From assembly GCA_958009085.1 (NCBI GenBank), contig OY253688.1, positions 62,001 through 126,000 on the forward strand: DNA of 64,000 nt, written 5' to 3'. A program made the translations under genes and the position numbers. Numbering within the stretch: the first letter of the stretch is position 1; each line of letters begins with the position of its first letter. Positions 4,385-57,635 of the stretch are shown here, one piece after another. Below the pieces are notes generated by a model. The model had not been told where the DNA came from. It saw nothing but the letters and a program-made list of their open reading frames with translations, and made no database searches. The DNA is from Protoeuglena noctilucae. Lineage: Eukaryota.

Positions 4385-7300
4385 TCATTTCTTCTGGATA
4401 TCGATGCAGTTCCGGGGGATCTTGTACACATCCGTGAGGTGCGCGGCCAGGCGGTCCTTGTGGTCGCCCTGCGCGACGACCAGGTAGGCGCCCTTCTTGG
4501 CACCGGGGGCCTCCTCCGTGGTGGTGGCAGCCGCGAGGAGCTTGGACAGACTCCCGCAGAGAGCGACGGAGTCGATCAGGAACGTCTCGAGGCCCTGGAC
4601 AACCGTGACGCGCTTGTTGCCCTGCCTCCGCTCCGTCGTGATCCGGACCTTGCCCAGCTGGCCCCGCCGCACGTGCGTCTGCCCGTCGCGCGAAACGATG
4701 TTCTGGCGCGACATCCTCGCCAGGAACAGCTCCTTGATCTCCGCCTTGCGCAGCACCCGCGGCGTCGGGTCGCCCTTGCGCACCACGCCCTTGTACAGGC
4801 AGTCGTGCAATGCGTTGTCGACAAAGATGAACTCGCGGCTGGGGACGCGCAGCTCGGGGTCGTCGAGGCCCTCCTTCTGCGCAGCGGCGAGCGACGCGGT
4901 GAGAATCATGGTCGGGCGGCGCAGGTTGTGGTCGGAAGCGCACACGGCTCGTGGCGTGCGCAGCGACAGGGTCATCCCGCCACCAGCGGCACTCTCCGCG
5001 CAGCAAAGCCACTCACATCTATCACATAAGACTGCATTCAAGCATCGCAAGCAGGAGCAGCGCCGCTAACTCGTCACCTGCACGTACTGCATCAGGACGT
5101 CGTGCACCTCCCTCGCCGCGTAGAGCTGCGAGGGGTCTTTCCCCACCGCCAGAAAGATGCCCGCCGCGTTGGCTGAGGGACGGAAACGCTCGGCGATGTC
5201 CAGGTGCGTGCCGGAAGAGGCCTGGGGGTCATAGGACATGGGGGCTGTGACCGACGATGGCATCAGCTCAGCAAGAGATGCTGTAGTAACACCAGCAGTA
5301 ACAACCTCAGAACCAAACGCTTCCACCAACTCATGGCTGCAAAAGCACGCCATGCCATCAGCCAACATGAAACTTGCTTTCATTGGCCCCGGTCCCTCCC
5401 CACCTCCTCAGAAGGAGGCCCCGCGTCCGCCTGCCTTTTGCGCACGGGTCGGAATCGCGTGTAGGCCTCTCCCTGCCGGTTCACGGCCGTCACCACCCAC
5501 TCGCGCGCGTGCTTGTCTTGTTTGCCAGAAAGGATGCCTTCGGATGCCAGATGCTCCATCCACTTGCTGAGCTTCTGCGGGTGGCGAAAGCAAAGGCAGG
5601 CTGACACTCGCTGAGCTTCTCAGCTGGGTGTTGAAACACGCTTTGTCACCTTTGAACCGCCTGTGCATGATGTCAAGCATGCCCTCTCCCTCATCGCCCC
5701 TCACCTTGAACCGCGTGTGTTTGATGTCCAGGGACGTCCCCTCGGGCCGACTGGCCAGGATGGTCTTCCAGAGCTTGGACGCCGCTAGGGGCAGGTCCTT
5801 GTCTGACACGTGCAAGTGCAGCGCCTGAAACGGGACAGACAAGGGGGCATGCATCATCACCCATCGTCGCCACCCGCACCACACCCATCTACCCACCACA
5901 CGCATCCATGCAATCCGTTCACCCACCCCTCAACTGCATCATCACCCGTCATCACCACCCGCCCACCCACCCGTCACCTGCATCGTCGACCACCATCACC
6001 ACCCGCACCACATCCATCCACTTACAGTTACCGCATCCATCCCTCACCTGCAACGTCGACCACATCACTAACTCCTCCATTTCTTCCATCGAAACCTCCG
6101 GCCCCTTCCTCCCAGACGTCTCCCCACCCCCCTCAGCCCCATCCACTCTCACACCCCTCCCTCCACCCTCCTCACCCCCCTCACCCCGCCCCTCCCCAAC
6201 CCCATCAGCACCCCCAGCCCTCCCCTCGCTCTCCTCTTCTCCTCCCCCAGCCCCACTCCCCATCGCACCCTGCTCATCCCCCATTATTGCCCCCTCCACC
6301 TCCCCAGCCCCTTGCACCCCGCCCTCGCTCCCCCCGGCCTCCTCGTCACCCTCCCCCGTGCCCCCGGCCCCCTCCCCACCCTCTTCTCCCCCCATCTCCC
6401 CGTCCCAGTCCTCCGGCAGCGGCTCGCCATCCACGCCCAGCCCCAACGCATTCAGTGACACCACGATGCCATCCAAGTAGCCCGCGTTGGGCGGCTTGGT
6501 ATTGGTACCCGTCTCCCACAAGCAGTCGCCGTAGATGGTCAGCATCGAGAGCAACCTGCCCCGGCCGCTTGCTTTAATCGCGTCGTCTCTGCTCATCAAC
6601 GCGACGCCCACTCCCAAGGGGCACGGGTTGCCCGCCACTGAAACCGCCAGAACTGTTCCAGAGACAAAGGGCGGGAGGGACTCAGCACCGCCGCGCACCC
6701 CGGGGAGCATCAGATCGGCGCCCTGGGAGCAAAGGCAAAGCGAGGACTGACATGCGGCATTGCAAGCGGCACAGTACACAAGCACAGCGGACGGGGAGAT
6801 TGCAAACGGCACAGGGCTGTCTACAGGCACACAGGGCTGTCTACAAGCAGTGAACGGGGGGATTGCAAGCGGCACAGGGCTGTACATGAGCAAAGCAAAC
6901 GGGTCATGGTGACGATGACGCGCCAAGAGGGTAGCAGCTGTGCCGGAGAGGGCATGGCATGACATGAGATTTCATGACAAGGCGTTTGGAGATGGCACAT
7001 GCCAAGAGAGGCTGGGGGCATGTCACATGACTGCATGCGTGCATGATGTGCGCAGTGCCCCTCGTACCCCTCCCATCTCTCGCCTTGAGGAGGTACTGCG
7101 ACACGGCGTGGTGCGTGAGGACGATCGTGGGGACGAGGTCGGCTCGTCGGCACAGCGCGTGCGGAGTGGGGACGTAGTCATTCTTGCCGGTGGTGTCCAC
7201 GACGATTGGATCGCCGTCGTGGTAGTAAATCTGCGCGCGGCTGGGCGCGGTGACCTTGGCCAGCTCCAGAACACCCTCCTGCGCGACGATGACGACGCAG

Positions 7301-7497
7301 CCGTGGCAAAGGGAGCGGCGATCGAGGGAGGGCGGCAGAGTGAAGGCAGCTGCGTGCTAGCTCGCCTTTCCCGGCAGGAGCGCCTCGATTTGCTCATCGG
7401 TCGCGTTCCAGGCCTTCGCAAGCGCCTTCTTCAGCTTTTTGTGATCCGCGCCGGACAGCCGGTGGCGCTGCGACGTCGCGAATGGCTTCTTGAACAT
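4385..7497 (-). CDS. EIF2D: Eukaryotic translation initiation factor 2D (ligatin): PUA, SWIB-like and SUI1 domains
   Basis: Starts MFKKPFATSQRHRLSGADHKKLKK. PUA segment YLLK|GADLMLPGV...GNPCPLGVGVALMS...IYGDCLW; LDIKHTRFKKLSKWMEHL; SWIB-like AREVHDVLMQYV. C-terminal SUI1 RITTERRQGNKRVTVVQGLETFLID...QGDH...YKIPRNCI; TGA at 4385. Confidence 0.93.
6755..6890. repeat. Degenerate intronic tandem repeat (units GATTGCAAGCGGCACAG and CACAGGGCTGTCTACA)
   Basis: ATTGCAA(G/A)CGGCACAG occurs three times and CACAGGGCTGT three times inside eIF2D intron 2. Confidence 0.7.
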
Positions 7498-13933: not shown

Positions 13934-16900
13934 ATGCGTCATCCTGAGGCCCGCGCGCGCGCGCCGCGGCCGCAGCGCCCGCGCCCTCATCTTGCCCACG
14001 GCGTCATTTCGCGGCGTGTTTCGCAGCCCATGCGTCCCCGTGGCCGCCCGAGCGTCAGCCTCCGCCGTGCTCTGGAGGGGGCCCAGCGTGCCATGCAGCC
14101 CCTGACGTTCCCGTCCGCGATTCGTGAGGAGCCGGATAACGCGAAGGTTGCCAATCACGTCGCCGACGCGGCCGACGGCAAGCCCGCCGACTCCACGGAC
14201 TCGAAGCGGGGCGCTTCCCCGGGCCAGGACGTCCGCTTGGACCGGATCCTTTCAACCACCCACGCCTGGTCGCAGCCGCCGGAGGACATCGCCTTGTTCG
14301 AGGTGCGGGCGGCCGGCTGCACGGCATGGCTCGAGAGAGCTGCACTGAGGGTGTCGCGTCGTGTGTGACGAGCGTGGGTCGCCGGGTCAGTGTGGGCCCC
14401 TCGTGCTGGTCTGTCCCCGCAGGGCACTGCCAATGACCCGGAATGGGGCTCCGAGGAGGTCCTGAGGGCACCGCCGGGCTTCCGAAGGGCACTGCTGCGG
14501 GTGAGTGACCGCCATAGCGGCCATGTGCCGTACCACGCATGCGCGCTTGCCCCCGTCGCTTTCTCTCTGTCGCGGCACTGGACCCGCCCAGCATCTGTGC
14601 TCGCCCGCTCCGGTCGACGTCTGCCGGCCAGCACCCTCCGTGCCTGTCTCTTGTGGCACCCGCGCTCCGTCACCACAACCTCGCAACCTCCCGACGCACC
14701 GACCTTATCGTACCCACCCCCGCCCCCTCCAGGCCCGCATGTACGTGTGGGAGGTCCTGGAGCACCCCGAGCACTCCTGGCTGGGCCTGTCCATCACGGC
14801 AGTCATCATCCTGGCGATTCTGGCGTCCATCACGTCGTTCGTGCTGAGCGGCACCCCCAGCATCACCAGCCAGCCAGCCACGCGCGCGAAGTGGAACACC
14901 GCCTTCGCCGCCACGGAAATCACCACCGTAGCGATCTTCACCACGGAAATCGCGCTGCGGTTCTGGGCCAGGCGAGCGGACGAAAGACTTGCGACGCATC
15001 GACTCGCTTCCGCTCATCAGCGGAACAGACCCCGCTATTACTGACACCGGCTATTATATCAACATGTTTCTCTCTTTTCCTCACCCGCAGCAAGAACCGC
15101 CTGCGTTTCTGGATCACTCCGATGAACATCCTGGACGTGGTGTCGGTGCTGCCCTTCTACGTGGAGAAGGCGCTGTCGGGCAACAGCCACAACGGTGAGG
15201 AATGCTTGGATGCATGGGGGAGCGATGTCGCTGTGGCAGTGGCTGGGGAGTGCGTCTCATCTCACCCTCACTGCCACTCCCACTCTCACTGCCACCCCCA
15301 CCCCCACTGCCACCCCCACTCTCACCTCATCCCCACCCCCCCAGCCTCCACCGTTCTCCGTATCCTCCGCCTGGCCCGCATCTTCCGTCTATTCAAGGTG
15401 TCGCGCTACAGCATTGGCATCATCATCTTCACGAGGGCGCTACTCAAGTCCAGCAACGCACTCTTCGCGCTGGTGAGTCACAGAGTCGTTCTTTTTGAAT
15501 GCTGTGTTTGGTTCAGCCCTCACCCTGTTCCACCCCCACCCATCCACCCCGTCGCCTATCTGGTCATGCGCCATCTTCTCTTCAGTGTTACAACTAATGA
15601 TAAACACCCAGCCATCCACTCCCACCCAGGTTGTCTGTTTGGTCATGGGCACCACCATCTCGGCTTCCCTCTTGTGCTTCACTGTTACTAACAATAACAC
15701 TCATAAGTATTACTCATAACATCCCATTCACCCCATCCACCCAGGTCGTCTACCTGGTCATGGGCACCATCATCTCCGCCTCTCTCTTCTTCCTGGTAGA
15801 GACGGGGTCGTACGACGCATCGATCGGCGCCTACGTGATCCACGGGGAGGTCACGCAAGTGCAGTCCATACCGGACGCCTTCTATTGGGTGAGTGGTCGG
15901 GGGGCATACTGTGCTGTGTGTGTCTCATGATTGTGGGTGAGTGGGTCACGCAAGTGAAGTCCATACCCGACAGTCTCTCACTCCCACCCACGCCCACTCT
16001 CACTCCCACTCCCTCTCCCTCCTTCCCACTCCCCAGGCCATCACCACCATGTCCACGGTGGGGTACGGAGACATCGTGCCGCACACGGGGCTGGGGAAGC
16101 TCATTGCGGGGGTGACGATGATCGCCGGGCTGCTGGTGCTGTCCCTGCCCATGACGGGTGAGGGGGAGTGGATGGGTGGCAGTGTGTGTTGTTATTAGTC
16201 TATGATGGGGTACAGTGCGTTGCTGGCTATTTGTGACGATGATCGCCGGGCTGCTCGTACTGTCCCTGCCCATGACGGGTGAGGGGGAGTGGATGGGTGG
16301 CAGTGTGTGTTGTTATTAGTCTATGATGGGGTACAGTGCGTTGCTGGCTATTTGTGACGATGATCGCCGGGCTGCTCGTGCTGTCCCTGCCCATGACGGG
16401 TGAGGGGGGGTAGGTAGTGGTAGTGTGTTGCTGCTGACATGCGATGATTGGCGGCCGGGCTGTTCGCGCTCTAACTATGACGGCTAACTATGACGGGTGA
16501 GATGGGTGCGTTGGGGGTGGGGCTGGCAATGTGCCATGTGTCATCGGTCGGAAGGTCTCAATGCAGCACCAATGCACCCGCCGCCTACCTCAACCGCCCC
16601 CGTCGTCCCCCGTCGCAGTGATCGGTGCCAACTTCGCTGACGAGATGCAAGAGCTGCAGGAGATGAAGGAGGTGAGGGGACGGCTTGCTTGAATGTAACA
16701 ACTACTTCAATGGCATGTTCAGTGTCGAACCTTCCGCCAATCTGTGCTTGCCTCACCCACCACCCACACTGCACCCACCATCACCCACCCCCGTTCTCTC
16801 ACCCACCATCACCCGCCACCACCCCTCACCCCCCATCGCCCTGCAGCTCGAGCTCTTGGCCGCCCAGCAGCAGGACGGCGATGTGCTGGGCGTGGGCAGC

Positions 16901-19602
16901 GACATGCTGACGGCGGGGATGGCGGCGGCGGTGGGTAAGCCCTACAATGGCGGTGCGGGGGTGCAGGGGCCGGGATGGGGCAGTGGGGATGGGAGCGTGA
17001 GGAGGGGACTGGCGGCGGCGGCTGCGGCGTTAGAAGCTGCCGAAGCGTCGGGGAGGGGGCGCGAGGGGTCCGGGAGCGGGGTGCGGGAGGGGGCGGGGGA
17101 GGGGCGGGGAGAGGGGCGGGGCGGGCGCAAGGGCGGGGTGCAGTTCCGGAGTGGGGAGTTGGCGAGGGGCAGCGGGAGCTCGGGGGGCGACAAGGCGCTG
17201 AGGATACCCGTGGGGAGAGACGAGGAGGAGCAGATATGTGAGTCTCTATGTATGGGGCACATCGGAAGTGGCGTGGCAGAGTGGCTGGGTGTCACGCATG
17301 TCCGGTGATGGAATGCATCTGCATCTGCAATCGACGTGTTCACGTTTCATCACCCTGTAAGATTAAAAGTCTACTTTGCTTACACACGTCCTTATTCCCC
17401 TCCCCGCAGCGCTTCTGGATGCGATGGATGGGGACGACGATGGGGGGGACGCCACCAAGGCGAGACATGGATGGGATGAATGGGGTAGTGGGTGCTTATA
17501 GTGGGTACTTTGTATTGTGTGTTGGGTATTACACGGGATGTGGAGTACTTGTCACCGCCACTCTCACCACCACTCAACCCACCCCAGCACCCAACCCACC
17601 ACCCACCGCTCACCCCACCACCCACCACACACTCCACACCCACGACCACCCCATCTCCCCTCTCCCCAGGCCGTGGCTCCCCTCAGCACCCAGCCCCCCT
17701 CTGACGCCGAGGACGCCTATGTTTCTGACTCTGACGGTGCCAGAACGCCGTCATCAGACGGGGGGGGCGGGGGGCGGGGGCGGGAGGGGTGGGGCGGGAG
17801 CGGGGAGGTAGGCTCGCCTGCTATGGGGAGAAGGGAGGGGTCGCGAGCGCCGTCTATCGCCCCATCGATGGCCCCATCCGTGGCCACGAGGGGGGTATCG
17901 GGTGCGGGTGGTGGGGCGGGTGCGGGGCGGGCAGTGGGGCGGGCGGAGAGCGAGCGGGGTCCGACATCCACACGGGTGAGGGGATGGATGCGGGGGGAGA
18001 GATTGCGAGGAAAGTGTGAGATATGGTTACCTTATCGTGTTCACCATTGTCGCTATCTGATCCACATGTTCATCATCGTTACTGTCGTGTCAGTCAGAGC
18101 GCGGTGGGAGGGTGCGTTATCTTAGACTATCCACGTGTGTGTCAGTGTTACCGTCATCGTTACTGCACTATCGTGTTGGTTACAATTGCTATGCTATCCC
18201 GGTTGTGTCTGCAGGGCCCGGGAGAGGTGGCGAGGGAGACGGGGGTGCTGCACCGGGGGTCACTGGGGGACCGGCCAGGGCAGGCGGCCGTGGTGAGCGT
18301 AGAGTAGAGAATTGGTACATCATACGTGGTTGTGGATGTGAAGTACCAATGGTGGCTGCGGATGATGGTTTATCATGGTCTGTCACTGGAGTGTCTCGCG
18401 TGTGATCGCCAGCACCCACGCTGCCCGTCCCACCTCCGCTCCTCTCCTCGCTCTCCCCAGGGCCCGTCGGACCCGTCCATCTCCAGTGCTTATGTGGGGA
18501 TGCGGGAGGGTGAGGGCTGACTCTGCCGCAGCTGCCGCGAGGGGGGGGCAATGCGCGCGGTGGGCGGCTGTGGTGTCCGGCTGTGTAGCTGCTGCGCAAC
18601 ATTGCTTCCAACACGCGACGACCATCACCGCCACTTACCATTGCCATGCCACCCCCACAACCCCCATCGTTGCCCTTGCTCCCAGGGTCGGGTGGCGTGT
18701 CAGTGACAGAGTCCAAAGGCACCCCATCCAAGACACCCAGCCTCAGGTGAGAGACGTGCGGGCCCAGACATGGCTCATCTATGATTGGCTCGTGCTTGGA
18801 TGGCTCATCTATGATTGGCTCATTTTCACGACGCAGCTGCTGACGCCTTCATGCTATGGCTGCCCACCATGCCCACCCCTCCCCCACCACTGACCCCTTC
18901 CCACCCCACACCCCACCCCGCCACCCCTCCCCATCCCCCCCAGGGCCCGCATGGCTGCCCGTGGCCCCCCCACGGAGGACCACAGCGCCGTGCAGCAGCT
19001 GCAGATGGAGCTGCGTGCGATACGACTGGCGAATGAGATCCAGGAGACGATGGACCGACTGCAGGGACTGATGGCCGAGCACACGGAGGTGGTGGGGAAG
19101 CTGCAGGAGCAGCGGCGGATGTCGAGGCGCATGCGGACGTTCGTCAGCAAGATGCAGGCGAGTGGATTGGATGGGGGGTGACTGTGTGGTAATGGTATGG
19201 TAATGGCATGCGGACGTTCGTCAGAGCAAGATGCAGGCGAGTGGAATGGTGGCTGTGGGATGATGGAGGAGTGAGGGGTGGATGCGATGCGCACATTCAC
19301 CTTTCACCCGCACATGTGCTTTCCCCACCCTCACCCCTACATCCGCCACCCCTACCAACCCACCTCATCCATCACCCCTCCCACCTGCACACCCATCACC
19401 CCTCCCACCCACCCCTCCCACTTTCACACCCATCACCCCTCCCGTCCCTCTCAATCCTCACCCCTCACCTCCCACCCACCCCTGTCAACCCCAGACCACC
19501 CGCATCCGCCGCCCCCAAGAGGGCGAGCGTGGGAGCCACACCGAAGGGCCACCCCCCGCAACACGCCCCACCTCGCGACACGCATCAGAGGCAGTCGTGT
19601 GA
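13934..19602 (+). CDS. Voltage-gated potassium channel, 6TM Kv (Shaker/Shaw-like core)
   Basis: S2 [19 protein letters not shown]3 [17 protein letters not shown]4 [20 protein letters not shown]; pore [24 protein letters not shown]6 [27 protein letters not shown]. Start is uncertain (an upstream in-frame exon from 13585 is possible). Last exon 19495-19602 follows a GC-AG intron. Confidence 0.93.
16112..16500 (+). repeat. 121-bp tandem repeat spanning the S6 exon end and its 5' splice site
   Basis: The unit GTGACGATGATCGCCGGGCTGCT...CCCATGACGG|GTGAGGGGG... starts at 16112, 16233 and 16354. A degenerate fourth copy lies at about 16442-16500. Confidence 0.95.
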
Positions 19603-20607
19603 AGACAAGACCGGCCTCTCTGCTGTGTTGCCAGACGCTGGGGAGAAGCGCGACGGGTTTCTGGCGCACGCGGCCCGTATGAAACAGGGGGCCGCTCCTG
19701 GGCAGGGACGCGCTTCGTCGGCCCGGCCGTGTATATTTGACCCGTGACGCCCCTGATCCAACTTTATGGTGGTATTTTCTCAGAGCAGCTGCGTTGTGTA
19801 GCGTTACGTGACGTTTTGCGTAGGCATGCGTTTCATGCGTTTGGCGCGCCTCGACCCATTCCCCATTCACCCTGCCCTTGCATCTCGTCCATCGCACTTT
19901 CCAGCCTTGTGTGATCATTGCTGGACATACTGATGCAATGCCACTACTGGTGGTAGTGGTGAGGGACTGTCTGTGTTGCAGCAGATTGTGCCTTTTGGCA
20001 AGGCCTTCCCTCTCCTTTGGGGGTGCAACGCACCCCATGCAACCCACCAGGCAATCGAACATTGAAGGATGGTCGCCCGCGAGCTCGCCAGGTATGCCTG
20101 GCACATCATGCTGGCACAAGCCGGCTGCAACAGCATCACTCATATCAGCCATGCATTGCTTGCCCGTCTCGCGCACCACTAGCCTCGCATGCAACATAGC
20201 CACTAGCCCTCATTGCCGTCCAATGACTCTCTTCAAGCACCCAGCCGGTCATCGATCCTCACATGCCAAGCACAGCACACGCATGCCGCGCCAGCTACCA
20301 ACGTAATCTCATCCATCATCGATGTCACATGTCCACATGTCATCACCACATGCACAATTTCCGTGAGTATGTTGACGTCTCGCATGCTATGGCACCTGTC
20401 AAAGGCCACAACCACAACCTTGTGCTTCCACGACACATGCACACAGCGTCAGTCTCAAGCACCCACCACAGCTGCAGCCTCAGCCATCCACCGAAGCCGC
20501 AGCCCCACAGCCGCAGCCCCACGGCCACCACCTCATCCGCCCACCACAGCCACCACCTCATCCACCCAGCACAGCCGCAGCCTCAGCTAACGCAGCCACC
20601 CGCCCCC

Positions 20608-23600: not shown

Positions 23601-23920
23601 CTTGTGGCGAGGGCCTCCAGCCTCAGGCCCGTGCACAGCGCACGCCACGCCGGCGTCCGTCGCGCCAGGCATAGGCTATACACATGTGCGAGTCCTCCAC
23701 CCGCGTCGCTCCACCCTGGGAACGTCACCATGCCGCACAGGAGGTCATCCACGTCGGCGTCGCGCCGGCCCCGGGCCGCCGAGGCCGGGAGGGACAGTCC
23801 CGCCCGCTTCCGCCGCGGATCGGGGCCCCGGAAGGACTCCCGCCGTAAGTGCTTCGGGCATGAGGTGTCGCCATGGCTGAAGCGCCCCGAGGCGTCCTCC
23901 AGCTCGTCAAGCAGGCCCAT
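20608..23920 (-). CDS. Large low-complexity hypothetical protein
   Basis: ATG at 23920 (MGLLDELEDASGRF...). Successive P/A/G/S-rich open exons. Terminal helical exon AMAREQATALEGQLADCALQAQLLRAGVFEMRNPF...LLSA*. No domain recognised. Confidence 0.5.
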
Positions 23921-30563: not shown

Positions 30564-32114
30564 CTAGGCCGGGCTGGGGGGTCGCCGGAACAGCCGCCGC
30601 CGCACGTCCCGCAGTGGCCGGCCCACGGCTCTGTATCCCCTTGTCCACGGCTCCACCACCGCGTCCTTTGCCCTCGTGGCGTCGCCCGGCCTCATCGCCA
30701 GCCACCCCGCCAAGGCCAGGGGTGCGTGGAGGACGGTGGCCGTGACCCATACCCAGAACGCCCATCCCACGAAGGCGTAGTATGAGTTGGTGCCATTGGT
30801 ACTCAAGTCCTGAAAGCAGCAAGAGTCGGTGACATTAGAGCGAGTCGGTGCCATTGGTACTCAAGTCCTGGAAGTGATGGGGTAGACAGGGACACCCTGG
30901 TCACAACAATGGGCGTCTGTGGCGTAAGACAGATAGCTGGTGGCCAGTCTTTTTCAGCTATCGTCACGTCACCACCACCATTACGTGCTGCAGAGCGAAG
31001 AGTCCCAATAGTGATGAGAAAGCACCATCACCTGCACGAGTGGGTCCCCCGCGGAGTTGTTGTAGAAGTAGCCCCAAATGGCGCAGACGGTGATGGCGGC
31101 GAGCGTGGATAGCCCTGCCATGGTCATCAGAGCCGCCAAGAGCCCCAATCGCCAGCGGTTATCCATCCCAGCGATGCCCTGGAAGGCCAGGGGTCCCTCG
31201 ATCATCAGCTGCAGGAACACCAGCCCCGCCACAGCAATCGCCAGGCCTGCAGACACAGACAAGGGGCGCCGTAAGAGCTGGGCCAACCGGGGCGGTGTCA
31301 CTGACACAGTTACTCCCCAGACGGGGTCGAGTCACCAATCCACACCGCACCGCGAATGCTCTAGATGGGCCAGCTTGTGCTGCAGCGACACACGGCGCAA
31401 CCCTCGACATTCACAGTGACGTGCGCCCGCAGCAGCAAAGCTCAGGGCCACTCGCCATACGCGGCGCCCACGGCATGGTGGTAGTCGTTGCTCCCGAAGT
31501 GCTGCCAGTGGTCCTCGACTGTCAGTCGGTCGTCTAAGCATCCGTAGTCTGCAGGCGGGAGGAATGGTGATCGATGTCGAACATGCGCTCCCTGAATGCG
31601 CGTATGCCTGCCTTCGGAACGCAATTGTGTAGCTTCTCGCCTGTCCCGGATCCGAGGATGCTGCCGAAGCGAGCCTGGGCGCCTTTGCTCGCATTGAGAC
31701 CCCCGCCCACGAAGCTCGCTGCCCGAGACGCCCCCGGGAGCGCCGTAGCGCGGACGCACACCTCCCTGCTTGGAAGACGCGGGTAATGGAGAATAGAAAG
31801 TGCGTTATGCGCGCCCACAACGGCGCGGGGAGCGCGCCTCACCACAGACCAGCGCTGCTGGCCACGGCGTAGCGCCGGCTGTGCGGAAGGGGCGTGATGG
31901 GGACTAGGACGCCGTTCTGGACGTGCAACCAGTCGGGGGAGAGGATGGGGATGAGGACGAAAGCGAACGTGACGAGCCCTGCGAGGGAAATGAGCGCCGT
32001 CGCTCTCGGCCCTGAACTCGCCGCTCCAGCGGCGCTCGAGGACCGGCCCCGGCCCCGGTACCGCTACAATATCTGACCTGTAGTTATCACGAAGCTGAAC
32101 AGCGCCGCTCCCAT
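30564..32114 (-). CDS. Claudin/PMP22/EMP/MP20-like four-transmembrane protein
   Basis: Five exons: MGAALFSFVITT|GLVTFAFVLIPILSPDW...SSAGLW|EVCV...GSGT|DYGCL...GAAY|GLAIAVAGLVFLQLMI...LGLLAALMTMAGLSTLAAITVCAIWGYF...LVQ|DLSTNGTNSYYAFVGWAFWVWVTATVLHAPLALAGWL...*. Shows the W...GLWxxC...C loop signature and GWxF before TM4. Confidence 0.75.
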
Positions 32115-32290
32115 CGCCGTCCCGCGACCTGCCCACCGGGACGCGGGCCTCGCGAGCGAAGCTCCTTGTTTGGCCAGTTAACACGCTTATTTGCTGCTGA
32201 TTTCGCGTTTAATCGACATGCGGCGCCCGAGCGCGCAAGACCGCGACGAAAGCGCGAGCTCCAGCACCAGATGTGTCGAGCCCCTACGCC

Positions 32291-35200
32291 TCAAGCGCCC
32301 CAAGCCGCGGCCATCTTCGCCTCCATCGAGCTCACGATCCCTACGAACATCTCCTTCGGGCTCCACTCGATCGCGAACCTCGCGCAGACTGCGGCCGGGC
32401 AGCATGCGCATGTCTCGGCCCGCTGCGAGGCGCCCCGCGCGGCTCGCCCGGCGCGACGCGTACTCACTCGAATTGCTGGGCGGGACGAGGTATAGCACGC
32501 GCGGCCCGCCGTGCCCGCCGGCCGGGGGCAGCCGAGCCACTCCTGCACGCCCCTTCTGCGCCATGTCGTTCAGAAGGTCCACCAGGTTGCGGCGGTCGTT
32601 CTTGAGAATGCTCGTGGTGAGCGAGATGACGTGCATGCCGCGCTGCTCGAGCCGCGGGACCTCCCTGCGATGATCACAGGCCGGGGACGGTCGACGAAGC
32701 AAGGGCAACAATGACCCGGCCACAAGGCGCTCCCGTCCGCCACCCGCGCGCTCACCGTTCCAGGAAATGCCCCAGCTGCACCCACATCCGGATGTCCACC
32801 TTCCCTGGCCACGAGGTCGGTTCGGCCCCTGATCGCGACCGGGTGCGGCAGAAGAGCTGGCAAAGCGGCGCGCCCGTGCGTAACAGCTGCCCCTCCCACT
32901 CCACGCCGACCGCGCGGGCCTCGGGATCCGGGCCTGCGGGCGAGTGACGCGGCACATCGTGGCAGCAACCTTCCAGGTGCTTGCAGCGGATGTGCGGTAC
33001 CCGCATCTCCACACGATACACAGCGCACTGCTGGTGCGACTACCAGTGCTTTCATCGACACATATTAGCACCATTCGCATTCATCACCGGTACTCACCCG
33101 CTTGGCTCGCGTCCCGCGCACTCTCCGCCCCCGCCACCCCCTGCGACATCGCCACCTCCGCCCCCGCCCCCTTCTCCCCACCCTGCCCCTGCGCCGCCGC
33201 CCCCTGCGCTTGCGTCCCAGGCTCCGGGGCGTCCTCCCACACCTCCACCTTCAGCAGCCCGCCCCCCAGCCCCCGCATGTTGAGCGTGGCCACAGCCATG
33301 GCCGCCCCCAGGGGCGTGGTGAACTCGAGGATCGCGAAAGGGCACAGCCGCTGCATGCGCTTCAAGCGCAGACCGAGGTCCTTGAACAGCGCCGCCACAT
33401 CGTCGCGATTGGTGGCTGGGCGGAGGCCAGAGACTTTGACTTTGGAAGGCGGGTGCTGCTGAGGGCTGCGGGTGGGGTGGGGAGAGGTGGTGTGTGGTGG
33501 GTGGATGTTAAGAGCTGTGAGTAAGGGTTGCGGCTGGGGATGGGCGGGATGATGGTTGTTACTGGGTGCGGCAAGGGTACTGGAGGGCGGGTGTGTGGTT
33601 GTGTGGGTGTGTGGCAAGTCGCTCCTTGCATCGAGTATAGGGCTAACCCTGTCATCTGTCGTCTCCCTGCTGTAACCCGGCACCCCTCTCCCTCACCGCA
33701 GCACGCGCAGGGTGCTGGTGACAAGCGACTGTGCCGCTCTCTCCGCCTCGTCCCGCCCCTTCATCCGGAGCAGCACGCTGGGGCGGGGCATACCCACCCG
33801 GGTCACTTCAAAGGAACCCTCAGGGAACCCCGCCTCCTCCAACTGCCGAAGAACGCCTGACAGAGCCTTGGAGGACGTCACCTGAGGGCAGGGGCGACGG
33901 GACTTACTTGCTCCCTCACTCTCCCTCACTTGCCCCACCCGCAGGAAGTGCATTGCCTGTCACCCTCCCTCACTCCCTCACCTGCCCCACCCACAGGAAG
34001 TGCCCCGCGGGGTCCTCCGGCTGCCGGGCCGCGTCGGCGGGGTCGTGGGCGACGAAATCCACACGGAATCCGGGACCCTTGCGGCCGATGCGCTCAAAGA
34101 CACTCAGAGCAGCGTCGATGGTGCTGCAGGTGGGAGTGGAGTGGAGCGGAGTTGAGGTGACAGGAGGTGAGAGGGGAGTGGAGTTGAAATGACAGAAGGT
34201 GAGAGTGGAGTGGATTAGAGTGACAGCAGTGGAAGTGATCACGTGAGGGTCACGGTGGTTGTCTACGCATCATCACTCACGTGAGGGTCACGGTGGCCTC
34301 GTGGTGAGGCCCCGGCAGCGGCTGGATGTGCAGCACGGCGCCACGATCCTCCGCGATCGCATTGCACGTCTCCCAGACACTCTCCCAGGGCAGCTCAGAG
34401 GGGGCGCTGACCAGCAGCGTGCACGATGCCACGCGGATGTCCAGGGGCGGGGCGCGGGGGGCGTCGGGAGTGGCGCGCAGACGCTCAATGAGGGCCTCGG
34501 CCCAAGGGTGGCGACTGCGGGGATCAAGTGAACAGGCGAGTGGTATGCAATTCAAATGCTCAATGAGGGCCTCGGCCCACGGGTGGCGACTGCGGGGGTC
34601 GGTGAACGGGCGAGTTGTAATCAGTGCACAGTCGAACCGTGGTGGGGGGGGCAGGCGGGGTGGCGGTGACCCAGTGAGGCTTAGAAAGGCGCTGCGACGT
34701 GCAAAGTTAGTTTCGATAACCACTTCGCAACGCACGGCATCTCCATTCGCATCGCATCCATCGACATGGTCTGCACCCCGTCTGCACCCCCCAGACGACC
34801 TCCCCAGGATTCAGACCCTTTCCCCAGGACCAGCTCACAGCTCACCTGGGCTTCTTGAGCCCGGCGTACCAGAGCTCCAGAGTGGCGCGAATCCACTTGA
34901 CGGTTTCCGGCCTCTGCTTGCCAGCCATCGCCACCAGATCCCAGTCGGGTCGTTTGGAAGCAGTCGCCTCCTCACCGCCACCCGCACACTCGCTAAAGAG
35001 CTGCACCACCGCCTCTGCGGTAGGGAAGGCCATGAAAAGGAGTGGCTCAGCAAGAGGGGCTCAGTGGCAGCAACAGCAGAGCATGATGGTGAAGAGAGTG
35101 GCTCAGTAGCAGCAGAGCATGACCACGGCAAGGGCAATGACGACCATTGAGTGAGGCAATAGCTTGCTTGTTGAAAAGCATCACCACCGCCTGTGCAGTG

Positions 35201-36582
35201 ACGCTGCCCCCCACTCGCTCACCTGCCCTGCACAGCCCACCACTACCCCTCCCGCCCCTCTCGCTCACCTGCCCTGCACAGCCCACCACCACCACCGCCG
35301 CCCCTGTCGCTCACCTGCCCTCGACTGCCCCTCCCGCTCGCCCCGCTCCACCGCCCGCAGCATCGCCGGCAGCACCGCCTGAGGGCACATGGCCAACGCC
35401 CGCACCACCGCGCCCCTCGCGAGCGCCCATCCGCCCTCAGGGTCACTCGGATCGAAACACGACCCGTCCGCCGGACCCGTCTCCACCTCTCCCTCCACCA
35501 ACTTCAAAGCCTGCTCTAGGCGCCTGGGGGTGATCAAGGCGTGGTATGGTGAAAGTGAGGGGGAGCGAGATGGGAAAGGGTCCCAAGTGCAGTTGAGGTG
35601 CTATCTTGCTATCTGATCACAGCACACATCGTCGTCCAAGCAGCAGGCGACTGCGACCCACACCGCGCCCCGCCTTGCCTCAGCAGGACGTCGCATGCCT
35701 TGGACACGATGGCCGATGTGTCGACGACGCCCATGGCATTCCGAGGGTCCATGGCTACTTGGCACAGCTGGCTTAGGCCTTTCAGCGCCTCCTGAGCCGT
35801 GGCGCGCCCGAAGCACTGCGGCGGCGACGGGACGGGCGAGCTGCTGCAGAATGCACGAACGCTTGTTGCTGCTGCGAAAACAGAGCCAGCGCTGCGGCAA
35901 TTTCGCGCAGCACACTCGCAACACGGTGCGCGACAATTGCACGACAATTGCGCGCAAGGAAGGGGGCTCCAGTACTTTTGGCTCACTCGGTACTCGTGTT
36001 CATCTTTTGAATGTTCTGCTTCCGACGCCAGCGCCACCAAAGCGTCCGCAGAACGCGAGAGCAGGCCCGGGAAGCGCCCGCAGTGCCGGGGGATCAGGTG
36101 CGAAGCCAGATGGCGCGTCCCGCAGCTGCGTGGCGTGGAAACGGATGGCTTTAACTACTCGCCAGGCGCGGCAGCATGGCATCGCGACATCGCGCAGCTG
36201 TGGCACACCGAAAGGGGGTGCACCAGCCCGCGTGCGATGCCGCGCAGCCCCGAGACCGACCTGAGACCGGAGAGCGCCACGGAGAGGATGTATAAGTAGC
36301 TATCTTGCGCGGTGGCCGAAGTGGAGGGTACCTCGGCCTCGAGCGCCTTCGATGCGTCGTATATCGCCCGCACGTCGGAGCGGTACCGCTCCGCAGCCTT
36401 GGCTGCCGCGCGCTTGGCGCCTCCGCGCACATCGCCGCCATCACGATCACGCTGGAGAGCAGGCAGAGAGAGGGGGATGATTGGTTGCGCGCATTCGCTT
36501 GCTTAACGGGCACGCGGCGCTCCCTGGGCTCCCAGCTGCGACCTATGCTCGCATCAAAAGCTAACCTCACCTTCCCGAGCAT
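32291..36582 (-). CDS. RRM- and SPOC-domain protein (Spen/FPA-related architecture)
   Basis: Start MLGK|RDRDGG. RRM-like exons include SKVKVSGLRPATNRDDVAALFKDLG...FAILEFTTPLGAAMAVATLNMRGLGGGLLKVEV. SPOC segments EWEGQLLRTGAPLCQLFC...WPGKVDIRMWV and LVDLLNDMAQKGRAGVARLP...RVLYLVPPS; TGA at 32291. Confidence 0.8.
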
Positions 36583-36903: not shown

Positions 36904-38975
36904 ATGAGCGCCGAGGCGCTGATTGCGCGTGCGCGAGAGGCCATCGCGCGCGCGCGGCTGTTGACCGACGCTTACGAGCTGGGAGGTACCTGTAGCAGTC
37001 AGGATCGGTCCCACCAGCGACTGGCGCCAGCGCAGCGAGACGGGGGCGCGGCGTCGGGGTCCACGTCCGCTGCGCCAACACAGTGGGCAGCGCAGCGCGA
37101 CAGGTGCGTCCGTTGCTCGGACAGCTGACGGCTTCCGCGCAATCGGGTCACGAAGAAGCGCCTATGCGGGACAGGCCATCCCGTCTCGTCCTGGGTGACC
37201 TTGAACGCAGCCACAGTTGCTGGCCCCGCCCTTGGCTCGGACCAGCGCTCTTGCTGCCACGACGAGGCTGCGTTTGCTGCGCCCTGATCAGTCATCATGC
37301 GACAAACTAGCCCCTCGCCTTGCCTATCCCTCTTCTCTCTTGCCGCTGCAGGGCCTCAGACGGCGGTTTTGACGCGAGCGACAAGACAGACGCGCGCGGC
37401 GTGACCGGGGCGTCCGCCTCGCTCCTGGAATGTGACGGGTGGGCGAGAGACTCTGAAGAATGCGTCGGTCACGGGGAACGTCAGGTAACGCGGGTGCAGC
37501 GGCCGCACAGAGGGCGGTGTTCCCATCGGCAGCGCTTTGTCACCCGGCGCTGCCCGTCCCCTCGCAGGCAATCGAGTGGGATGGCGGCGCGCGTGACCGT
37601 GCGATGCGAGCGGTTCTCAGCGATCGCCTGGCCTCGCTGCGGGAGTCCCAGGCTGCCACGATGCACCAACTGCTGTCCCTGCGTCGCGACCAGCTGCGGC
37701 TCCGCGTACAGCAGCTCTCCGCGCTGCGGTGCCTCCTGCGCGCCGAGGCACTGCGGTCCGAGACGTACACGGAAACACAGGTGGGAGCTTTATCGGCACA
37801 CGCGTGGTACCCGGCACTGTGTATGGTACCCAGCACTGCACCCTGCACTGTACTCGACACTGCGTACCCTGCACGGTACCCTCTTCGATACCCTGCATGC
37901 TCAGTACCCTCTCGCGACAATCCAGCGTTGGCCACCTCTGCGCTCGCTCCCCCACTGCTGCAGTCGCTCCCTTCCACCGCAACGGTCGCCTCCCCACCCC
38001 CATCCTCAGGTCGGCACGATGCTCCAGGCCGTAGAGTTGCTGGGTAGTTGCCTGGGTGACGTGGCCCACGCATCGGAGGTGCTGTCGACTGCGGGCCCTG
38101 GGCAGGCCATGGCCATCAGCCAAGCGGTGTCAGAGGCGGATGCCAGGGCAGAGGAGGCGTCGGGGATCGTGAGGTCGCTGGTGAGAGTGGAAGCATATGA
38201 TGGGGAGAGGGGCAGAGGTTATGGACGCTAGCACACAAGCACGTCGACGATAGCTAGTACTGTGGGATTCTCCCACACAAGCACACTGAAAACGACGTGT
38301 GATGTAATGTGTCCCCACTCCTCACCATCTCCCCCGCAGCTGGACTTCGTGCGATCGTACGCGGCACAGGTGCAGGCGGCCGGGGGCGCATCCCCAGAAG
38401 GGTCGAGCCTGAGTCAGTCACAGATCGACGCGCTGGGAGAGGCGGTGGTGGGGCCACGGGACGCGGGGCTGGGGGAGCGGCTGGCGGGGGACGTGTGCTC
38501 GGTGTGCCTGGGGGAGTACCTGGAGAGCGACCGCGTGAGGGTCATGCCGGTGAGACCTAGTAAGGATGGAAGGTTATTGTGTGATGGTGGTATCTGGTGT
38601 GCCTGGGGGAGTACCTCGAATGCGACCGCGTGGGGAGACGTGGTAACGATGGTGGGGCTGGGCCTGGTGAGTTTGAGTGGGGTGATGTGATGAGAGTATG
38701 AAGGTACGAGCTGAGAAGAGTCAGGGGAAGAGAGTGGGTGGGCAGTGGGGCAGTGGGTGGCATGACCATGTCGTCCCGATCGTTGTCGCTCGCAGGTATG
38801 CCAGCATGCGTTCCACGTCGGCTGCATCGACGCATGGCTTCGGGTCAAGAGCCTCTGCCCCATGTGCAAGCGGTGTGTGCAGGGAGGGGGTGCGGCGGTG
38901 GGGGAGGGGGCGTTGGCTGGGGACGAGGTGCGAGGGGAAGGGAGGGGAGGGGAGGAGGAGGGTGGTGCTCCTTGA
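36904..38975 (+). CDS. RING-H2 finger protein (putative E3 ubiquitin ligase)
   Basis: C-terminal CSVCLGEYLESDRVRVMP|VCQHAFHVGCIDAWLRVKSLCPMCK (C3H2C3 pattern), preceded by SLSQSQIDALG. N-terminus MSAEALIARARE with coiled-coil-like exons. Confidence 0.88.
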
Positions 38976-44000: not shown

Positions 44001-47000
44001 GTGGATGCGGGGGAGGGGTCTGAGGAGGAAGAGGAGATGGCTGTGGAGCCGCGGGGTGGGCGTGGCGCGAGCATGAGCCCGAAAGCAGCGGCGGGTGCTG
44101 GGGTGGGTGCAATGGCGGGTGCGGGGGCAGGCAGGGCGGCGGTCAGTCCCAAGGCTGCCCCTGCCCCTGCGGTCGTCAGCCCCAAAGGTGGCATGGGCAG
44201 TGGTGGGAGAGGGGACGTGGGTGGGCCACCCATGCCGGCAGTGGTGAGCCCCAAGGGAGGGGCCAGTGCGGGTGCGGGTGTGTCTGCAGTGGCAGCAGCA
44301 CCAGCGCCTGGGCCGCAAAAGGGCCGCGACGTGGATCGAAGGGGCGACGTGGATGGCAGGAAGGGCGACGTCGACCGGCGGGGGGAGCAGGAGGCGGGGC
44401 GAGGGCTGTCCTTCACGCGCCGGGGTGCGGCGGGCGGGAGGCGGTGGGATGAGGGGCGGGCGCGGCGGGTGGTGGAGGGAGCCGTGGCGCCACTGCTGGC
44501 GTGGCGTGCGGTGGCGGGGGAGGGGCGGGCGGCAGATGAGGACCTGGCGTTCCCCGCCAGGGCACTGCTACGCACGATGCGGGCGCTGGGGGAGGTGGGG
44601 CCGGGCCGGGCGGCGGAGATGGCGAGGGGGGTGGCGGGGGCGGCGGCGGCGGCGGCGGGGGCGGGTGCGGGGGCAGCGGGGGCGGCGGCAGCTGCTTGGT
44701 TCACAGCGGCAGGTGCGCGGCTGGGATTGGCGTCCGCGGAGCTCCCCGGCCCGGACCGCGCCGACTGCGAGCGTGCTTTGGCCAGCATGGAGGAGGAGTG
44801 TTTCTGGCGTCTGGTGCGGGGGGCGTGGGAACCGGCGCGGCGGCAGGCCCCGGCATCGCTGGGGGACGCGGGGGTGGGGGCGGTGTGCGGTCTGGTGCGC
44901 AAGGCGGTGCAGGAGCTGCTGAGAGAGGTGGCGCAGCTTGGGTCGGCCGGGGCGTGCCTGGCATCACGCGCGGTGCCTGCGTTGGTGGCGGTGGCGGACG
45001 CAGCGATGGTCAACGCGGCGCTGGGGTGCATGCCCCCTGCAGCGGCGAGGGGGGCGGTCATGGACACGGGCCTGGGGGAGCAGGGTGAGTGATGGGGTGG
45101 GGAGATGGGGGTTGATTGTGTGTTGGTGTGTGTGTTTGCGTGATGTGATGGACACGGGCCTGGGGGAGCGGGGTGGATGATGGGATTGGGAGAGGGGGTT
45201 TGGTTGAGTATAGCTGCAAATGCTCCTAATGACTAAAACACCCATTCCGCATCTCAACCCCGCACCCTCCTCCTCACCCCCACGCTCACCTCTCATCTTC
45301 ATCCCCTCACCCCAACCCTCGCCCCCCCCCCGCAGCCCCCCGCCGCTCGGCCCCTCCCCCCGCCACCTCCCCCCTCACCTTCAGCTGGGGCATGTCAGCG
45401 AAGATGGAGATGACGCAGCTGATGGAGTATTTGAATATGGGCACTGCAGAGGCACAGGCACTCATCCCCAGGATGAGGGGGCTGGCGGACCTGATGGTGA
45501 GAGATGGAGGGGCATGTGTGTATGTGGGGTGTGTGGGTGTGGGTGTGTGTGGGGGTGGGGATGGGTGTTGTTGGTGTGTGGGTGGGGTAACCGGTGTAAG
45601 TGCAGACCAGCAGTGTACTGCTCGCCCTGTCTCACGCCTTCCCCACTTGCCACTTGCACTTCTCTCCACGTTCACCCACAACCCACCCCCACCGCCCACC
45701 ACTCTCCCACTCCCTCACCACTCACCTGTAACCACCCCCCACCCCCGCCCCCTTCCCCCCTTCCCCCCAGATGCTCCCGAAGGAGCTGGTGGCCGACCCC
45801 TCGGTGTTAGCCGAGGTGTGCCCGGCCCTGTCAGCCCCCCAGATCGCATGCGCGCTGGACCGATACCAGCCGGACGCCTTCTGCAGGGACCCCATCGGTG
45901 AGGATGAATGAGATTATGAGATGTGAATGGATGAATATGAGGTAATAAGCTATTCAATGTTCAGCAAGCTGCAGTATCGGATTGGCTCACCCCACGACTG
46001 TTCCACCCCCACCAATGCCACCCTCACCACCTCACTCAACCCCACCCCCATACCCCCCCCCCCCAAGACCCCGCCATTGCCGTGGAGGTCCGCGAGCTGG
46101 CCGCGGAGTCGGCGGGGATCGATCCGGAAGACCCCGTCGCCATGGCACGCGCCGCATGGGCCAGCTACGGGCCCCCCATGTCTCGCGGTGCCTATCGCCC
46201 CATCGCATCGCTTGACGAACTACGCGCACCCCTCTCCACCCCTCCCCGCCCCAACGCGCTCCCATTGTGGCGCGTCCCAGCCTCCGCCATGGCCCCGGCC
46301 TTCTCTCCCGCGTGGCTCGACCTGCGTGAAACCGAGGAGCCTGACGCGGACCTTCTGGCGACGGCCGCGGCCGTGTCGATGCCGGTGCAGGGGGCGGAGG
46401 CGGCTGGGGCGGTGCTGGAGCTGTGGGGGTGCGGGGAGGGGAGAGGTAAGGGATCGAATCTCGGGGAGTCGCGGGATGGGTCGGAAAATGAGAGCGGGAG
46501 CGAGGGGGAGGGGGAGCGGTGGGGGGCTAACAGGGGTGGGGTGGAGAGGGGCAGGGAGGGGAGGGGAGTGGTGGGGAGAGGGGTGGGGGAGGAGGAGGGG
46601 CAAGGGGATGACGAGGGGTGGGGTGGGCGGAGGGGGGTGGAGGGGAAAGGTGGCAGGGGTGCAGGTGCGGGCGTGAGGGCGGGCGATGGGTGGGGCAATG
46701 CGAGTGCAGGTGCGGGTGGTGGTGTGGGCGAGGCTAAGGTGCCGTTGCAGAGGGGAGTGGGCAGTGCGGGGTCGGGCGTTGCTGTCGGGAAGCGTGGGGT
46801 GGGTGAGGATGAGGGGAAGTGGGAGCGAGAGGGGGTGGTGGGGCGGGGTGGGAAAGGGTATGAGTATGAGAGGGGTCGTGGGGGAGTGGGAGGTGGAGTG
46901 GAGAGGGACGGAAGGGGCAGTGGTGGGGCGCAGGGTGGGTATGAGGATGAGCGAGAGGTGGGGCGTGGGGCGTGTGTTGGTGGGGAGATGAGAGATGGGG

Positions 47001-55145: not shown

Positions 55146-57635
55146 TTACTCGCCCACGCACGCCTCCACTCCCACCCCCACCCCCCTTCCCTCTTCCCCG
55201 TCCCCGGCGCCGTTCCCTACCACCACCGCGTCGCCTATCCCGTGCCCTTCGCTCTTCGGCGACGGATGGATCGAGTCGCCTTCGCTGTCGTCGCCTTGCC
55301 CCGCTCCCCGCCCCTCGCAAGCCTCTCTCGAGTCAGACCCCTCGATCCCCGGGTCCTGCAGCGCACCGGAAAACAACAAAACATCGGCATTTGCAATCGC
55401 GGCGAGCGGCGGGGCCAATGGTGCTCCGCGCGGGCTGTTGCGCACCCCGGACGCGTCTGATGGGCTCTCTCCCTCGTGGTCGAGTCTCTCCACGTCAATT
55501 TCCTCATCCGACCCCGGCGCCTCCATGTCGTAGTAACACTGCGTTAGGAGACGACCCTCGATGCATTCGCAATATCCATGCTTAGAGAGACGCCCATGTC
55601 GCCACTTCCAATGCCTAACCCAACCCCACCAAACCCGCCCCTCCGCCCCTCCCAGCAATGCGCAACTCGCCTTGGCGGGTGGCCGCGGCAGCACGGCGTC
55701 GAACTGCACGTACTCCGGCTCTGCATACCCCGTCTCCGGTCGCAGCACCACGACGGCCCCTTTGTTGGACAGCCGCGTTTCTGTGTCTTGGAATTGAGGG
55801 TAGTCCGGGGCGGAAAAGACTGCATGAAAAGGGACACGTGCTGTCGTGCCGAGACGTGAGCGTGTCGTGTCACCCATCACAAACTCCCGATGCACATCAC
55901 CCATGCCCTGTCTCATCTCTCATCTCACCCGTCACGAGCTTCCCGGACGCGACCTCGTGGTCCACCGCGTACCCTCCCTCCATCCCCTTCATCCCATCGT
56001 CGCGGTTAGCCCTGGCATCGGGGCCCTCGTGAGACCGCACCACCAGCCGCACCCCGTTGCGTTGAAGGAACGTCTCCGTCACCTCGGGACCGAAGATGAG
56101 GCCCACCCCGCGAGAGTCGTTCAGCACGAGGCCCCCGGAAGGCGCCGGGTCGGACCACAGCACGTCTGTCGCCACAGCCGCCGCACCCATGCCGTCAGGG
56201 TCCAACCCGCCCTTGCGTGCAAGCCGCAGGTCATCCAGAGACCCCAGCTCCGCGGTGCCATGCAATTCGGACGTTGCAGCAGTCAATGCCACCCGCCGGC
56301 GCTTCCGGCTCCGGGGGCCCTTAGGTGCAGGCTTGCGGAAGAGGCCCCCGTGCAGCACGAGCGTCGTGCGGCACACCAGGCACGCCAGGGGCAGCGAGGC
56401 GAAGAGGCGCTTGAAACCTGCGTGTGTGGGGGTGCGAGGGGGTCATTGGAGAGGGGCTGTTGAGTCTAGGCTTTACACACACACCACTGCACCAGTCACC
56501 CCACCACGCCTCTCCATTACTATCAATACAGCTGCCGCTGACTGAGTCCCCACTCGCACACGTCTTACTAGCACGACGCCTGTTAGCATGCCCATTTGCA
56601 AACTTCTCAGTAACACAAAGCCTGTTACTATCCCCTCACCAGCGAAGAGTCTCTTGGCGTTCCTGGGCCCGTACTTGGCCTCGACCTCCCCACAGAAACC
56701 GTAGGTGGAAGCACAGTAGACGCTCTCGTGGTTACCGCGGAGCAGCAGGGCACGATGGGGCAGGGCCACCTTCCACGCTGCCAAGAGAACCAAAACTTCG
56801 AATCCCCACGCGCCACGGTCGATGAAGTCGCCATTAAAAACCATCAGGTGGGAGGACGAGGGGCGGCCGGCCACGGAGAGCAGCCTCAAAACGTCGTGGA
56901 ACTGACCGTGCGTGTCGCCCACCACTGGGGAGAGGGAGGGGCGCAGGGGCTGTGAACGTGCATCGATGCATTGAATGGCACAGGCGATTGATGCCATCGT
57001 GGGGAGCCCTGGTGCCAGCGCGGCGGCATCCTCACCGCTCACGCGCACGCCCTCGCTCGTATCGATGTCCACCTCGAGCATCGTGGGCTCGCGGGCGACG
57101 AGCGACGTGCAGTCGGCGGCAAGCGCCAGAACGTCCTCCGTGGCGAGCACCTGCTGCACCGCCTGGGGCCGGCCCGCCCACGTGCTGCGCTCTAGCTCCG
57201 CCGCGAGGGCATCGCACCATTCCGGCGTGCACCTGCGCGACGCAGAGGGCGGGGCGACGAATGGCAATGCCGCGACCAGGGTGCACGCACAGCCCGGCGA
57301 CATGGGCGTCCCGAGAGCCTGGGGGGAGGCTGCTGCGCGCTGTCATGCAAAACGAAAGATATGCGGACGCCCTGTCGGGGCACGCGCGCCGTGGAACAAG
57401 TCTCGCGCGGGATCACACCATCGGCGTGCAACGCGTGCCAGCGCATCGATCGGAGACCGCAGCCACAGAATCGAGGTGCTCACTTGGCGCGGGAGTAGGC
57501 GAAGCGTCTCAGGGGACCTTTCACCGCTTGCCCGGCGGCCTGGCCGGGATTCTTGGGCCCGACCGCACCACCGAGCGCATCGAGCGCCGCGGCCTCAGGG
57601 TCCCCCGCCGCGGGTCCCTCGGATCCCCCTCCCAT
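55146..57635 (-). CDS. PP7: Serine/threonine protein phosphatase 7 (plant-type PPP family)
   Basis: GDTHGQ, FNGDFIDRGAWG, LRGNHE, HGGLFR with a basic insertion (RSRKRRR), DVLWSDP, RSHEGPDAR, DHEVASGKLVT|VFSAPDYPQFQ. The RSHEGPDAR and SAPDYPQF motifs are PP7-like. The first exon (ATG 57635) is tentative. Confidence 0.9.

Follow-up and report, generated by a model that had tools for sequence, protein, structure and literature searches.

Short direct copies of exon edges and splice sites in adjacent introns of Protoeuglena noctilucae: probably small duplications filtered by selection

Small within-gene tandem duplications are frequent and are an accepted route of gene-structure change; what becomes of them depends on the use made of the copied splice signals (review, PMC3443670). 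The closest known case to the one described here is the 37-bp variable number tandem repeat (VNTR) in intron 7 (IVS7) of human F7, whose first unit spans the exon-intron boundary and in which the most upstream donor is used while the identical pseudo-donors stay silent (Borensztajn et al. 2006, PMC1557585). Two green algae, Chlamydomonas and Volvox, show the highest intronic tandem-repeat densities, with a U-shaped distribution toward the intron ends (Zhao et al., G3 2014, PMC3887541). Here we analyzed a 64-kb stretch of DNA from Protoeuglena noctilucae, an intron-rich marine alga (contig OY253688.1, positions 62,001 to 126,000; 60-72% GC; hereafter the window, with positions counted from its first letter), in which about one intron in ten holds a short head-to-tail copy of the adjacent exon edge including its splice site. 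The existence of these exon-edge echoes is confirmed as observed, and we consider them probably to be ordinary small direct duplications or young minisatellites (30-140 bp units) filtered by selection, without a special junction-seeking process.

The F7 layout recurs in a voltage-gated K+ channel (Kv) gene, where an array of 121-bp units (16112-16408) places three further donor cores behind the first donor, which is the one used according to an RNA contig. The differences are that F7 is a single human locus studied by mutagenesis, whereas the echoes occupy at least 13 junctions in six genes within 64 kb, include acceptor-side cases and consist mostly of two copies. The internal-duplication literature, in the parts of PMC3443670 that bear on this, concerns new introns arising from exonic AGGT, whereas in the window existing junctions have been duplicated and introns lengthened. 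The green-algal study, in its relevant passages (PMC3887541), deals with 1-50 bp units within introns, and those passages do not describe units that include an exon edge and splice site. Introner elements likewise add sequence to marine-algal introns, but (PMC9860276) they form dispersed families of many near-identical copies, whereas each repeat here is private to one intron. A genome-scale account of exon-edge echoes was not found in a literature search that was far from exhaustive.

A previous reading of the window from its letters alone (the sequence-only reading) had listed pairs of exon edges and intronic copies and had proposed that exon edges be aligned with their flanking introns. We ran this test on an exon model of 132 introns, using 264 probes of 40 nt of exon edge (last or first) plus 10 nt of intron, each aligned to the adjoining intron, with 5280 comparisons between probes and non-adjacent introns as the control. 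At a score of at least 32, 13 of the 264 probes matched their own intron compared with 0/5280 controls; at a score of at least 28, the counts were 16/264 and 5/5280. The 13 loci are distributed over the eIF2D gene (2), the Kv gene (4), a membrane-protein gene, an RRM/SPOC gene (4), a RING gene and an NT-C2 gene, which bears out the view that echoes recur in several unrelated genes, with at least 13 junctions across 6 genes in 64 kb. Nine or ten of them are donor-side and three are acceptor-side, and one, in eIF2D intron 5575-5704 (spacing d = 54), was absent from the earlier list and came from the edge-probe test. Fifteen of the 16 pairs listed earlier scored 38-108 in local alignment (match +2, mismatch -3); the remaining one, the PP7 pair 55925/55870, scored only 20, no better than chance, and the claim for it falls.

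An ungapped diagonal scan of the window detected 30 direct matches with a score of at least 36 at a spacing of 20-400 bp, compared with 6, 1 and 1 matches in three control bins of equal width covering 401-1543 bp and none in seven farther bins. Twenty block shuffles gave 0-3 matches each (mean 0.75 vs 30 observed), and at the same threshold no local inverted repeats were found in the whole window (0 vs 30 direct). Tandem Repeats Finder (TRF) reported arrays of period 121 (2.5 copies, 98% matches), 79 (2.2 copies), 46 (2.5 copies) and 44 (2.1 copies); these arrays and the exclusively direct orientation establish head-to-tail adjacency, the pairs at 34239 and 15849 being arranged as copy-filler-copy. 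The repeats are also locus-specific, as had been claimed, and do not constitute a dispersed introner family: no diagonal match lies beyond about 1.5 kb, none of the 5280 cross-intron comparisons matched, no non-simple 14-mer with at least four copies was found in the window, and the many similar copies in unrelated introns that characterize introners are not seen. Predicted intergenic DNA (12 kb) held only 2 repeat loci vs 19 in 24 kb of introns and junctions. The 13 echo loci are as follows.

5647..5731, minus strand: second eIF2D donor echo; 5705-5731, at the end of the exon, and the adjoining GTGA recur 54 nt further into intron 5575-5704 (26/31 identical).
5850..6068, minus strand: eIF2D donor-side array at exon end 6048, intron 5825-6047 (exon model predicted); one clear echo at 5964-5999 is followed by degenerate units at 5920-5962 and 5850-5892, and the adjoining exons match WH_eIF2D (Pfam).
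15551..15795, plus strand: Kv acceptor-side echoes; upstream copies of the 3' splice site together with the beginning of the exon (15745) occur at 15622-15686 (d = 115) and, in weaker form, at 15551-15590.
15849..15971, plus strand: Kv exon-internal 28-nt echo; 15849-15876, ending 12 nt before the donor of the RNA-confirmed intron 15889-16036, is recopied at 15944-15971 (26/28 identical), and the donor-like GGGTGAGTGG also recurs directly ahead of the copy.
16112..16500, plus strand: Kv donor-side 121-bp array (TRF period 121); unit 1 covers the exon end 16157 and the donor, units 2 and 3 (from 16233, and 16354-16408) are 98% alike and keep the donor core ACGG/GTGAG (slash, exon end), and an older degenerate fourth unit lies at about 16440-16500.
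19129..19298, plus strand: Kv donor-side echo in the RNA-refined GC-AG intron 19158-19494 (TRF period 79); the exon end plus CAG/GCGAGTGG is recopied 77-79 nt downstream with the GC donor intact.
30784..30874, minus strand: acceptor-side echo of the membrane-protein gene, intron 30810-31031 (exon model predicted); YTTYCAG plus 26 nt of exon start is found 58 nt upstream in the transcript (31/33 identical, AG intact).
33921..34003, minus strand: RRM/SPOC donor echo (exon model predicted, DNA confirmed by runs X4 and X6); the 100-nt intron 33882-33981 consists of two 52-nt units, the first of which begins 22 nt within the exon.
34239..34296, minus strand: RRM/SPOC donor echo, intron 34124-34280 (exon model predicted); 16 nt of exon end plus GTGA recur exactly (20/20) 38 nt into the intron, with unrelated sequence between and beyond the copies.
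34483..34616, minus strand: RRM/SPOC acceptor echo, intron 34515-34845 (exon model predicted); a copy of roughly the last 26 nt of the intron and the first 32 nt of the exon lies 75 nt upstream, with the AG intact.
35209..35330, minus strand: RRM/SPOC donor-side 46-bp array (TRF, 2.5 units, 91% matches), whose first unit enters the exon end at about 35315, the exact exon end being uncertain.
38501..38660, plus strand: RING-H2 donor-side echo, intron 38550-38795; 40 nt of exon are recopied 95 nt downstream, and a gap of about 12 nt removes the echo donor before the similarity resumes.
45057..45209, plus strand: NT-C2 donor-side echo (exon model predicted); 28 nt of exon and 37 nt of intron are recopied 88 nt downstream, with the donor weakened from GTGAGT to GTGGAT.

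Most pairs resemble partly decayed tandem units, with similarity over 53-100% of the period and identities of 81-100%, and the first or last repeat unit holds the exon edge and the authentic splice site, which is a predicted one at seven of the 13 junctions. Some arrays are layered, with three young units and one old unit in Kv and three or four degenerate units in eIF2D, and they would therefore keep growing once seeded; the identity range, together with the old fourth Kv unit, likewise indicates that duplication is ongoing and repeated. The proposal that introns are lengthened in this way was upheld: Kv intron 16158-16618 (461 nt) owes at least 242 nt to extra units, intron 33882-33981 (100 nt) owes 52 nt to them and the RING intron (246 nt) owes 95 nt. 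The companion proposal of decoy or alternative splice sites stands in part: several echoes keep an intact GT, GC or AG, but alternative use of an echo site was not seen among the RNA contig joints listed, contigs being unable to show rare isoforms.

The echo copies are not assembly artefacts. Logan contigs from an isolate run (X4) and from a metagenome run of a different sample (X6) carry the same sequence over 15450-16165 and 16379-35449 with zero letter differences, the X6 coverage of 16379-35449 coming in pieces. Both sets of contigs end at 16165 and resume at 16379, inside the 121-bp array, because short-read contigs must break there; no DNA joint that skips a 121-bp unit was seen among the joints listed, the X4 and X6 contigs breaking within this array. 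RNA contigs join Kv exons at 15472>15745, 15888>16037, 16157>16619 and 19157>19495, so that in all four echo-bearing Kv introns the exon-continuous outer site is used, as illustrated by the last acceptor at 15745 and the first donor of the 121-bp array at 16157. RNA run X9 covers introns at low depth (e.g. 34030-34360) and is uninformative on splicing there. Two further features of the RNA contigs were recorded. One contig from run X10 matches the window from 35296 rightward, with its leftward sequence absent from the window in a 17-base motif search; this off-window part may belong to a paralogue or to another organism, or the contig may be chimeric. Another spans 1758 nt (28285-30040) without a joint, past the last intron of the RRM gene and with no clean frame throughout, and is probably a long 3' untranslated region or a low-complexity tail.

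The exon model was produced by a two-strand Viterbi gene finder trained on introns from RNA contigs and on recognizable genes, which yielded 16 genes with 148 exons; three places were corrected from RNA or Pfam evidence, leaving 132 introns with a predicted median of 164.5 nt and a median exon of 144 nt. Twelve introns were supported by RNA contigs of run X10 and refined to GT/GC..AG among the joints listed, nine of them in Kv. Most of the Kv exons with RNA support are recovered by the model, one start having been shifted to the RNA joint, and Pfam profile positions continue over several predicted junctions, but the gene finder still fuses some adjacent genes. Junctions of the 13 echoes are supported by RNA in four cases (Kv), by Pfam continuity in two and by the predicted gene model alone in seven. 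The two Pfam cases are eIF2D intron 5575-5704, flanked by exons matching WH_eIF2D positions 11-51 and 52-92, and the RING intron, after which exon 38796-38975 starts at profile position 21 (zf-RING_2) or 32 (zf-rbx1). The echoes misled the gene finder twice, once into a false in-frame 63-nt exon (16337-16399) and once into reading a RING exon through its echo (38550-38666). Because echoes keep codon-like sequence and good splice signals, automatic gene models of such genomes may carry spurious exon pieces.

Plus-strand genes were recognized by single-exon Pfam matches to LCM methyltransferase, KTI12, the RING-H2 gene and polyprenyl synthase; the same strand carries Kv (Ion_trans_2) and the NT-C2 gene, with weak matches to NT-C2 (21 bits) and DIL. 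On the minus strand lie eIF2D (Pre-PUA, WH_eIF2D, SUI1), the RRM/SPOC gene (an RRM_1 match and a sub-threshold SPOC match of 22.7 bits), a PPP-type phosphatase and a short-chain dehydrogenase, also by Pfam. Some gene names of the sequence-only reading need qualification, as the SPOC and NT-C2 matches fall below the Pfam cut-offs and "claudin-like", given to the membrane-protein gene, has no Pfam match. Sequence near-identical to the window was found in runs of one labelled organism, in marine metagenomes and in metatranscriptomes. A homology search for a public model of the RRM/SPOC gene returned only the window's own open reading frame product, and a metagenome scan with Kv exon 15745-15888 as the query gave 596 pattern matches with 0 relatives confirmed. 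The introns are rich in low-complexity sequence, notably at their ends, with a G-rich start and a C-rich finish. Read in transcript orientation, the 132 predicted introns have a GC skew of +0.29 over their first fifth and -0.32 over their last; for the 12 introns supported by RNA among the joints listed, the corresponding values are +0.35 and -0.58. GC-AG introns (e.g. CAG/GCGAGT) are unusually common, amounting to 26/132 predicted introns and 2/12 RNA-supported ones among the joints listed (17460-17669 and 19158-19494).

The sequence-only reading had gone further and proposed that duplication is centred on junctions, and such a process is not demonstrated by these data. We compared 19 independent events, 13 junction-spanning and 6 wholly intronic, with a null in which the observed unit lengths are placed uniformly in genes and the survivors are those lying wholly within an intron or across exactly one junction. 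Under this null, 27-33% of surviving duplications with 30-38 bp units should span a junction, and 54-74% of those with 70-121 bp units. The observed 13/19 events at junctions compare with 9.12 expected (P = 0.051). Junction-spanning pairs remain detectable for longer because selection on the exon holds one copy; exon-anchored pairs diverge about half as fast as intron-intron pairs, and with a detectability weight of 0.5-0.67 for the intronic pairs the excess gave P = 0.42-0.21. Per-probe match rates were similar as well (13/264 junction probes vs 13/363 intronic probes). The repeats thus fit the survivorship null. The wholly intronic events are listed on the next line.

6785 (d = 63), 11418 (33), 15263 (36), 18770 (30), 19373 (37) and 34139 (32): repeats lying wholly within introns.

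In this count the eIF2D units at 5850 and 5920 were merged with 5964 as one event. Left out were 9673/9708 and 20454/20519 (outside predicted coding spans), 43564 and 44608 (exonic), 47350 (a doubtful intron within a coding repeat) and the PP7 pair (score 20), as well as 57233 (score 30) and 63303 (score 28) as borderline. The long low-complexity stretch of the NT-C2/DIL gene holds in-frame coding repeats at 43564-43620 (period 24), 44608-44692 (period 21) and 47350-47514 (period 138). All three repeats in predicted coding exons have periods that are multiples of 3, compared with 7/19 among the intron and junction events, which is consistent with a selection filter.

Taken together, the sequence-only reading is partly supported, and we infer a molecular duplication process followed by a selection filter. 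The strictly direct, very local and recurrent nature of the repeats speaks against a mobile element and for slippage, unequal exchange or end-joining. Duplications would arise in and around short, compositionally skewed introns, most likely through replication slippage, unequal exchange or end-joining, and the low-complexity intron ends, passing from G-rich to C-rich, would favour slippage and could alone favour events near junctions. With introns (~165 nt) and exons (~144 nt) this short, units of 50-120 bp will often extend across a splice junction. Exon-internal duplications would be removed unless the reading frame is kept, and intron-internal ones would be neutral. Duplications of a single junction would be nearly neutral because the spliceosome keeps using the exon-continuous copy, whether first donor or last acceptor; the additional edge and its splice site would simply become part of the intron and decay there. 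Templated insertion in either orientation was considered as the main source and rejected, no local inverted copies having been found in the window.

Several observations weigh against ordinary duplication filtered by selection as a full account. Among units of at least 50 bp, 11/12 lie across a junction vs 6.9 expected (P = 0.011, in a post-hoc split), and five of the six wholly intronic events have short spacings (d = 30-37), the other having d = 63. The exon model comes from our own gene finder, with only 6 of the 13 junctions independently supported, and the sample is one 64-kb window. Two echoes are sharp-edged, the copies at 34239 (20/20) and 15849 (26/28) passing directly into unrelated sequence; plain decay of a tandem unit does not account for such edges, and their arrangement suggests that these pairs may be copy-filler-copy repair products.

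A duplication process truly biased to junctions, driven for instance by breaks or polymerase slippage where introns begin G-rich and end C-rich, or by lesions coupled to transcription or splicing, is possible but seems to us rather unlikely. It would draw on the excess of junction events and of longer units given above, on the short distance (15-62 nt) that separates each of the six wholly intronic repeats from an intron end, on the strong composition gradient along introns and on the reported enrichment of tandem repeats near green-algal intron ends (PMC3887541). Against it, the excess vanishes after correction for the slower decay of exon-anchored pairs, per-probe rates are alike at junctions and within introns, nearly any 70-nt array sits near an end in introns of 100-460 nt, and the sample is small. 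It is similarly doubtful that junction-focused duplication is a main route of intron growth in this lineage, constantly seeding identical decoy splice sites.

Functional duplicates, whether alternative or mutually exclusive exon pieces or selected decoys tuning expression via nonsense-mediated decay, are very unlikely. Several echoes do retain an intact GT, GC or AG, and the gene finder itself took 16337-16399 for an exon and read through the RING echo. Yet an echo takes in just one exon edge, over 16-50 nt, and one splice site; mutually exclusive exons would be complete, with a splice site on either side and the frame maintained, and no echo is of this kind. The second Kv donor, if used, would add 121 nt and cause a frameshift with a TAG after 14 codons, as read from the sequence, and the RNA contigs show outer sites only among the joints listed. 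The echo sites also decay: the RING donor is deleted, that of NT-C2 has become GTGGAT, and the echoes of the 35209 array may have lost theirs.

More improbable still is that the introns themselves were newly made by tandem duplication of an AGGT-containing exon segment (the Rogers model), or that the echoes are footprints of intron sliding. The Rogers model invokes the same kind of mutational event, within-gene tandem duplication (PMC3443670), but under it the first part of the intron should match the beginning of the downstream exon and the last part should match the end of the upstream exon, which is not what is found. The echo lies in the middle of the intron, and after it the beginning of that intron appears a second time, so that an existing junction was duplicated. 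Finally, an assembly artefact or chance low-complexity match is hardly credible, since, although the introns are rich in low-complexity sequence and the copy number of the 121-bp array rests on the assembly, where short-read contigs break, the X4 and X6 contigs reproduce all other loci in 15450-35449 without difference, and the shuffles (mean 0.75 vs 30 observed) and control comparisons (0/5280) leave little room for chance.

The loci described here show intron growth in steps of 38-121 nt. They are also naturally occurring tests of how splice sites are chosen, in which as many as three more identical donor cores follow the one that is used, in the manner of the single well-studied human F7 locus. 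If it holds genome-wide, the excess of longer junction-spanning units would indicate a mutational bias at intron ends, and if duplication were indeed focused on junctions, this genome would be a natural library for how the spliceosome chooses an authentic site among exact copies. On present evidence, the pattern in this alga is what a high rate of small duplication combined with purifying selection should produce.

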